From contig CM075994.1 in assembly GCA_038087875.1 (NCBI GenBank), forward strand, positions 3,288,001 through 3,352,000: DNA of 64,000 nt, in the 5' to 3' direction. The DNA comes from Malacoraja senta (Eukaryota). Below the pieces are notes generated by a model that did no database searches, was not told the DNA's origin, and saw only the letters and a list, made by a program, of their open reading frames with translations. This document shows positions 138 through 59,912 of the stretch, one piece after another. Both the position numbers and the translations under genes were made by a program. How positions within the stretch are numbered: position 1 is the stretch's first letter; each line of letters opens with the position of its first letter.

Positions 138-164
138 AAGTGGATGTTCTCCGAATTGAACTGG
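138..164 (+). CDS. Micro-exon 1 (27 nt): (E)VDVLRIEL
   Basis: tttttatattttag|AAGTGGATGTTCTCCGAATTGAACTGG|gtaaat. Confidence 0.75.

Positions 165-59912: not shown

Follow-up and report, generated by a model that had tools for sequence, protein, structure and literature searches.

A giant array of tiny symmetric exons in Malacoraja senta is predicted to encode a coiled-coil rod

The window analysed here, a stretch of 64,000 nt from Malacoraja senta (contig CM075994.1, hereafter C18, positions 3288001-3352000; genome 1.94 Gb), carries 24 short plus-strand segments that are almost certainly protein-coding micro-exons, judging from their sequence, conservation and strand bias. The window is an internal part of a larger plus-strand array that very probably forms one long gene for a rod-forming coiled coil, as the predicted product suggests. 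Our best overall explanation, for which we see about as much to say on either side, is that the window is the middle of one giant coiled-coil gene that is the counterpart of the teleost si:ch211-14a17.10 family.

All AG..GT segments of the window were scanned with generic, approximate splice weights. A preliminary description had listed 23 such plus-strand segments between 138 and 59912, 18-42 nt long, all multiples of three and in phase 1. The de novo scan locates every one of them (645 nt in total) with translations that agree by eye, and their size split of 15 x 27 nt, 3 x 24, 3 x 36, 1 x 42 and 1 x 18 includes the fifteen 27-nt segments counted earlier. Strict cut-offs return 16 plus-strand candidates, 6 of them from that list, and relaxed cut-offs return all 23 plus one extra. 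A 24th segment (44950-44976), with a length of 27 nt, a strong donor and a counterpart kept in a paralog, was absent from the list. The 24 predicted exons sum to 672 nt or 1.05% of the window, much as the earlier estimate of about 1% coding had it, and they do lie in non-repetitive gaps, since repeats identified by self-BLAST overlap none of them (24/24 unmasked). The introns between them span 222 to 12,326 nt and contain remnants of reverse transcriptases, integrases and Tc1-type transposases. The predicted exons are listed below; each comes from the AG..GT scan, and its further support is given last.

138..164, plus strand: micro-exon 1, 27 nt, phase 1-1; kept in paralog
535..558, plus strand: micro-exon 2, 24 nt; kept in paralog
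4953..4979, plus strand: micro-exon 3, 27 nt; flank-trained splice score
6942..6983, plus strand: micro-exon 4, 42 nt, rod break with Gly/Thr/Ser; flank-trained splice score
11939..11965, plus strand: micro-exon 5, 27 nt; flank-trained splice score
16050..16073, plus strand: micro-exon 6, 24 nt; flank-trained splice score
16635..16661, plus strand: micro-exon 7, 27 nt, Gly-Cys-Pro end; flank-trained splice score
20989..21015, plus strand: micro-exon 8, 27 nt, Thr-rich linker with Cys; flank-trained splice score
22664..22690, plus strand: micro-exon 9, 27 nt; flank-trained splice score
23879..23914, plus strand: micro-exon 10, 36 nt; flank-trained splice score
36241..36267, plus strand: micro-exon 11, 27 nt; flank-trained splice score
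37970..37993, plus strand: micro-exon 12, 24 nt; flank-trained splice score
41678..41704, plus strand: micro-exon 13, 27 nt; flank-trained splice score
42942..42968, plus strand: micro-exon 14, 27 nt; flank-trained splice score
43977..44012, plus strand: micro-exon 15, 36 nt; kept in paralog
44698..44724, plus strand: micro-exon 16, 27 nt, AAG acceptor, weak donor; kept in paralog, donor consensus there
44950..44976, plus strand: micro-exon 17, 27 nt, not on the first list; kept in paralog
45732..45758, plus strand: micro-exon 18, 27 nt; kept in paralog
47787..47813, plus strand: micro-exon 19, 27 nt, weak donor; kept in paralog with the same donor
51228..51254, plus strand: micro-exon 20, 27 nt; kept in paralog
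52311..52346, plus strand: micro-exon 21, 36 nt; kept in paralog
58372..58398, plus strand: micro-exon 22, 27 nt; kept in paralog
58621..58647, plus strand: micro-exon 23, 27 nt; kept in paralog
59895..59912, plus strand: micro-exon 24, 18 nt; kept in paralog
1..64000, plus strand: whole window, predicted internal slice of one array; modelled exons continue on both sides

The same kind of segment is strongly enriched on the plus strand outside the window. A splice model trained on the window exons only was used to score both strands of the repeat-masked flanks (100 kb upstream and 130 kb downstream). Candidates of 15-48 nt with a score of at least 5 number 108 on the plus strand versus 38 on the minus strand. 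The ratio is 34 to 2 for 27-nt candidates and 15 to 1 for 36-nt candidates, with an average of 1.8 on the plus strand for other lengths, and ten block shuffles give 0-4 27-mers versus 36 observed at a score of at least 4. The 49 plus-strand flank candidates of 27 or 36 nt are open in phase 1 in 47 cases (phase 0, 18; phase 2, 23) and begin with A in 38; neither open frame nor first base is part of the splice score. Within the window, all 24 exons are open in phase 1 and 13/24 in each other phase. The reverse test used a model from 54 flank exons; of the 24 window exons, 22 rank within the best 51 of 3676 plus-strand candidates, a result that is partly circular because the flank exons had been chosen with the window model. 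Splice scores are weak for the exons at 44698 and 47787, which rank 127th and 137th among the 3676 and are both conserved in the paralog.

These biases bear on whether the segments could be an artefact of picking in-frame AG..GT stretches by eye, a worry raised with the first list together with a proposed minus-strand check. The first selection was indeed made by eye, and its joined reading without a stop, although true, is nearly automatic and thus weak evidence, as shuffled exon orders likewise give 0 stops. The strand, length and phase bias found out of sample and the selective conservation in the paralog largely refute an artefact, which we consider extremely improbable.

Unique DNA of the window has one collinear copy on C18, located ~0.7 Mb downstream and matched as follows.

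Window 58-804: paralog C18 3,999,356-4,000,541
Window 43.7-45.2 kb: paralog C18 4,035,665-4,037,131
Window 58.0-60.3 kb: paralog C18 4,042,530-4,043,929

Collinearity is anchored further at 60 kb before the window and 125 kb past it, and two segments farther upstream than the 60-kb anchor have no paralogous copy. The comparison covers 12 of the 24 window exons. All 12 keep their length, AG, GT and open frame, with 0 indels versus 8.2 expected from the flank rate. Identity amounts to 98/104 at splice sites (94%), 267/330 nt in exons (81%) and 1713/2306 in aligned intron (74%). Differences at codon positions 1, 2 and 3 (17, 16 and 28 of 98) and a dN/dS of 0.37 (dN 0.18, dS 0.50, Fisher p 0.0008) indicate purifying selection on the coding sequence, though a fairly relaxed one. 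Together with the phase bias in the flanks, this ratio bears out the earlier reading of the segments as symmetric phase-1 coding exons.

Even with real exons, the window copy could be a duplicate that is silent or in decay. It shares only 68/98 amino acids with the paralog, and the donor at 44724 is weakened relative to the paralog by a 10-nt insertion. Against decay, phase 1 is open in 24/24 exons, and indels are absent from the 12/12 compared, which keep AG and GT despite a dS of ~0.5; we rate this reading as highly improbable. The insertion sits right after the GT of exon 16 (window 44,724-44,740, compared with piece L025:1321-1330 of the paralog). It replaces a consensus donor by a weak one, so exon 16 may be skipped in the window copy.

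Two sequencing runs, neither recorded as RNA, cover 41450-46100, and none of the 15 joints listed out of 104 links exon ends. There is thus no sign of a processed copy; expression is not addressed by these runs. At position 44,007, both runs show one contig with G at about equal depth. This is the paralog's base, which identifies the contig as the paralog rather than an allele or a product of editing.

The array extends well beyond the 60 kb of the preliminary description, whose exons hold up and whose extent does not. A fixed-rule model over 294 kb of DNA contains 80 exons (2301 nt, 766 aa) across 278.5 kb, with 21 exons upstream of the window (up to 86.7 kb), 24 within it and 35 downstream (up to 128 kb), in addition to the collinear paralog. 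Exon sizes are 50 x 27 nt, 19 x 36, 7 x 24, 2 x 18, 1 x 21 and 1 x 42. A few false exons and some missed true ones are to be expected in the flank part of the model. The figures of at least 80 exons over at least 278 kb are lower bounds, as both gene ends lie beyond the DNA read and the array is still dense up to its final downstream base. Farther downstream, five 4-kb samples at C18 3.50-3.74 Mb are transposon-rich with weak or doubtful micro-exon candidates, and samples at 3.80 and 3.86 Mb again contain clear ones.

Few other features accompany the array. ORF and exon scans of 264 kb recognise no large non-transposon coding exon, their hits being transposon ORFs, and Pfam matches 0/11 non-TRIM, non-Helitron ORFs of the flanks. 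An upstream intron contains PIF1 helicase fragments (piece L007:2351-3133), presumably a Helitron remnant. A 71-nt single-copy segment (piece L004:970-1040) with a strong donor and a hydrophobic reading is a candidate 5' exon, but a weak one; its phase-0 end could not be joined directly to the phase-1 array.

The predicted product is rich in Lys (13.7%), Leu (13.6%) and Glu (12.4%), with 0.7% Pro. Hydrophobicity in the 766-residue model shows a Fourier peak at a period of 3.4-3.5 with a 2.33 harmonic that is reached by 0/500 residue shuffles of either the window or the full model, and this upholds the earlier impression of a coiled-coil-like protein. The heptad signal also depends on exon order. 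At period 3.5 it is reached by 0/500 exon-order shuffles of the 80 exons, 13/500 of the 24 window exons and 15/500 of the last 23 exons; at period 3.6 the corresponding counts are 11, 19 and 134 of 500.

Two exon sizes dominate the pattern. In the 36-nt exons, hydrophobic residues occupy positions 2, 5 and 9 in 63, 79 and 68% of cases, and the 27-nt exons are hydrophobic at position 4 in 56% and carry Lys or Arg at position 7 in 56%. Among 79 junctions, 27-nt exons precede 36-nt exons at 14 and follow them at 16, and a 27+36-nt pair encodes 21 residues, which amounts to three heptads. The split codon encodes Glu or Asp at 54/79 junctions. The exons are alike only at the peptide level, which suggests that the duplications are old. 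Three window exons break the heptads (6,942-6,983 and two within 16,635-21,015) with Gly, Pro, Cys and a run of Thr. They are possible hinges or glycosylation sites.

The arrangement resembles other genes built from small exons, and the preliminary description had drawn two such comparisons. Schistosome micro-exon genes (MEGs) also place their coding sequence in many tiny, mostly 3n exons among long introns and are hard to annotate. In the accessible text of the preprint, they have 10-20 exons, mostly of 15 nt, introns of up to 5 kb and products of up to 189 aa, and are presented as a Schistosomatidae-specific group (bioRxiv 10.1101/2023.06.21.545858). The comparison fits in exon design and fails for the product, because the array is far larger than what that text describes, with at least 80 exons, and is predicted to encode a heptad rod (766 aa, unless it comprises several genes).

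Several tandem MEG-like genes, from which exon skipping would generate small variable secreted proteins, are nevertheless an alternative to a single gene. Gaps of up to 38.7 kb separate modelled exons, the largest in the model, and related exon copies occur at five contig places in both orientations. Specifically, a 27-nt exon at C18 3.80 Mb has four further copies at 4.95-5.99 Mb, and AG, GT and the 27-nt length are kept in 3/3 copies fetched from there; for a 36-nt exon at 3.802 Mb, no second copy was found among 23 scored candidates. However, collinearity with the paralog stretches from 60 kb before the window to 125 kb past it, the 264 kb scanned contain no recognisable start, signal-peptide or terminal exon, and MEG proteins reach at most 189 aa in the same preprint (bioRxiv 2023.06.21.545858). 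We therefore regard tandem small genes as very unlikely. The five places suggest a small cluster of related micro-exon genes on the contig, where micro-exon loci are interleaved with TRIM/B30.2 genes.

The second comparison was with the tails of chicken BG proteins, in which heptad repeats are encoded, in the parts of the papers available to us, by many 21-nt exons with a split first codon that follow Ig-V and transmembrane exons. About 27-38 repeats of these one-heptad exons occur, and the related butyrophilins have a few heptads and then B30.2 (PMC5938342, PMC4046983). Like BG genes as described there, the array is predicted to encode a coiled coil in a long string of small split-codon exons and has tandem gene copies near a TRIM region. 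Unlike in BG, the exons are of 27, 36 and 24 nt and number at least 80 over at least 278 kb. In a BG/butyrophilin-like membrane receptor, Ig-V and transmembrane exons would lie upstream, and the micro-exons would encode a huge coiled-coil tail in the cytoplasm. Split-codon heptad exons on both sides (PMC5938342, in its accessible part) and a contig rich in B30.2 genes would suit such a receptor. Against it, 21-nt exons are only 1/80, no transmembrane-like stretch occurs in the 80-exon model (maximum 1.24 for a 19-residue hydrophobic window), no V-set on C18 is among the best 150 of 1517 candidates, and no Ig-V, RING or B-box exon is recognised in 100 kb upstream (from C18 3.188 Mb). The BG comparison is incomplete because neither an Ig-V nor a transmembrane exon is found in the DNA read, and we think a receptor of this kind quite unlikely.

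SRRM3/4-regulated neural microexons share the 3n length and measure 27 nt or less. They are single alternative inserts in ordinary genes, whereas the whole coding region read here consists of micro-exons. The literature, supplements and subscription papers aside, yields nothing relevant on a micro-exon coiled-coil gene in sharks or rays.

A closer parallel for the product comes from teleosts. With a local TRIM B30.2 as query, we identified a catfish protein with a long rod of 21-residue repeats followed by B30.2. It belongs to a family of coiled coil plus PRY/SPRY proteins of 719-2065 aa found across teleosts from catfish to opah, one member of which is named si:ch211-14a17.10. Other members include a 'putative leucine-rich repeat-containing protein DDB_G0290503' of Ictalurus punctatus, 'myosin-3/interaptin' isoforms of Pangasianodon and KAK3511214.1 of Hemibagrus. 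Their automatic names (myosin, interaptin, EEA1) are mostly misleading, and the family searches match teleost-named or nameless proteins only. Several members start with a hydrophobic, signal-like stretch, as seen by eye. Isoforms predicted for a single Pangasianodon gene are set apart by 21, 63 or 84 residues in automatic models of a repetitive region. The name si:ch211-14a17.10 appears in a testis-specific list from Arapaima and in zebrafish tables of microglial expression and the embryo proteome; where it appears in the available parts of those papers, neither function nor gene structure is described.

Teleost rods and the array product have much in common. Both are very long, rich in Lys, Glu, Leu and Gln and nearly without proline, both show a 21-residue period in the register of the 27+36 exon pair, and both contain scattered Cys and Thr-rich breaks (by eye). 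The existence of a family with a matching repeat makes it doubtful that the array is lineage-specific, as the preliminary description had proposed. A profile of 14 27+36 pairs scores teleost proteins above shuffled sequences in 12/12 cases and above reversed ones in 11/12, with the best matches in the same register; shuffled and reversed sequences are the only controls, and a fish protein that does not belong to the family has a good score too. On a profile of teleost rods, the 766-aa model scores -10.1 bits, compared with a mean of -33.9 for order shuffles (1/200 reach -10.1) and -25.6 for the reversed sequence, and the window peptide scores 15.1 bits versus 10.1 reversed. The model's best BLAST score against teleost rods is reached by 30/199 order shuffles, and phmmer has no teleost family member among the matches listed. 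Whole-rod sequence homology, as far as such scores can measure it, is not significant.

Other features of the teleost genes add to this picture. Indels of 21 residues occur among the teleost proteins, whereas none of 9 or 12 residues do, which gives no sign that their exon sizes match those of the array. None of the 11 candidates scored (11/11) passed as a match to the N-terminal part of the teleost proteins, and unlike in the family, B30.2 and a signal-like N-terminus are not found at the array locus. The array product may work like the rod of the teleost family, in which its membership is unproven.

A B30.2 domain was sought across the contig. Motif and best-candidate searches find none beside the array or its paralog. 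C18 below 4.559 Mb has no match to five exact motif patterns, which divergent domains would escape, and in family and protein searches no B30.2 from that part of C18 is among the best 150 of 696, 150 of 686, 38 of 6169 and 150 of 709 candidates. Another motif pattern gives 18 matches versus 17 for its control, none on C18, and one further pattern matches as often as its control. One B30.2 motif gives 425 exact matches genome-wide versus 5 for the control, and a search for long B30.2 proteins returned 43, mostly fused frog TRIM models.

The B30.2 found closest to the array lies in an ordinary RING/B-box/PRY-SPRY TRIM at C18 4.552-4.560 Mb (piece L024:739-8596) and is 72% identical to a Mobula protein. 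We rejected this domain, at 4.559 Mb, as the end of the array, because it follows the RING/B-box exon of a separate TRIM gene. The RING reading of this TRIM at 4.55 Mb looks shifted mid-way, so it may be a broken copy. B30.2 motifs at 21.179-21.182 Mb of contig C7 (pieces L041, L042) were likewise rejected as an intron-split domain unrelated to the array; it scores 40+31 bits on the teleost family profile versus 140 for the TRIM, and we take it to be MID1/MID2-like. TRIM-type B30.2 exons are hugely expanded, both at C18 6.5-11.6 Mb and on numerous small contigs.

The product could instead be a rod of cartilaginous fishes that has no B30.2 and a structural or scaffold role, and its likeness to teleost rods would then be generic coiled-coil convergence. 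Such a protein would agree with the searches beside both array copies, within their scope, and with profile scores against teleost rods that hardly exceed the reversed controls. Yet those searches are blind to divergent domains and the 3' end lies beyond the DNA read, the register of the 21-residue unit is that of the teleost repeat, and the locus is placed among B30.2 genes. A protein consisting of the rod only is thus, in our view, unlikely. By analogy with the teleost family, a secreted rod with a B30.2 head might equally well be right or wrong.

We propose that symmetric phase-1 micro-exons would build an alpha-helical coiled-coil rod of at least ~770 residues, roughly 115 nm if fully helical, with a heptad register that runs across the junctions in genomic order. 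The gene may have grown through old exon duplications, and exons could be gained, lost or skipped without a frameshift. Paired skipping of 27+36 nt would keep the heptad register and could thereby tune rod length. In the most speculative part of the proposal, the product would be the cartilaginous-fish counterpart of si:ch211-14a17.10 and probably a secreted oligomeric rod. It might act as a spacer for a C-terminal B30.2 (PRY-SPRY) binding head and serve as a multivalent recognition or scaffold protein.

A broader version of this proposal posits an ancient, so far uncharacterised jawed-fish family with a cluster of several copies in this genome, in which secreted rods of >100 nm consist of at least 100 interchangeable 9- and 12-residue modules and carry a B30.2 tip. 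It is unlikely, though not far-fetched. Were it true, the family would be a vertebrate counterpart of schistosome micro-exon diversification applied to an immune-type recognition molecule, and exon skipping, gain or loss would tune the length and surface of the rod. If the B30.2 head alone is true, the gene would represent an unstudied, probably extracellular branch of fish B30.2 proteins.

Known genes with strings of tiny symmetric exons, such as schistosome MEGs and chicken BG tails, have tens of exons. The array is a vertebrate locus with at least 80 micro-exons over at least 278 kb, under 1% of it coding, and a two-exon, three-heptad block; it differs from these precedents in scale and in this module. 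Large genes of this class can escape ORF scans and short-read alignment or be mislabelled by them. The locus also makes it possible to test directly how the length and register of a coiled coil are set by exon duplication and splicing.

Related architectures appear elsewhere. With a teleost rod alone as query, the ESM Atlas gives only hits below 0.8. A Chordata cluster from another Atlas search, named 'nucleoprotein TPR isoform X51' (score 0.76, 1802 aa, SPRY and PRY in 100% of 79 members), hints that a long coiled-coil/B30.2 gene exists for which more than 50 isoforms are annotated. In two further proteins, P0138 and P0147, tandem coiled-coil repeats lie between an N-terminal membrane-anchor-like stretch and a B30.2 at the C-terminus. 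Stalks lengthened by repeats may have evolved in front of B30.2 on more than one occasion.

The 12-kb intron of the window holds a G-skewed insertion (25,656-34,673) with direct repeats at 25,656-26,205 and 34,142-34,673 that are 95-96% identical and ~8.5 kb apart. Strong splice-like segments at 27,703 and 29,902 within it were kept out of the gene model. A short ORF in the same insertion (31,972-32,358, plus strand), which has no Pfam match, resembles by eye the membrane anchor of a retroviral envelope protein.
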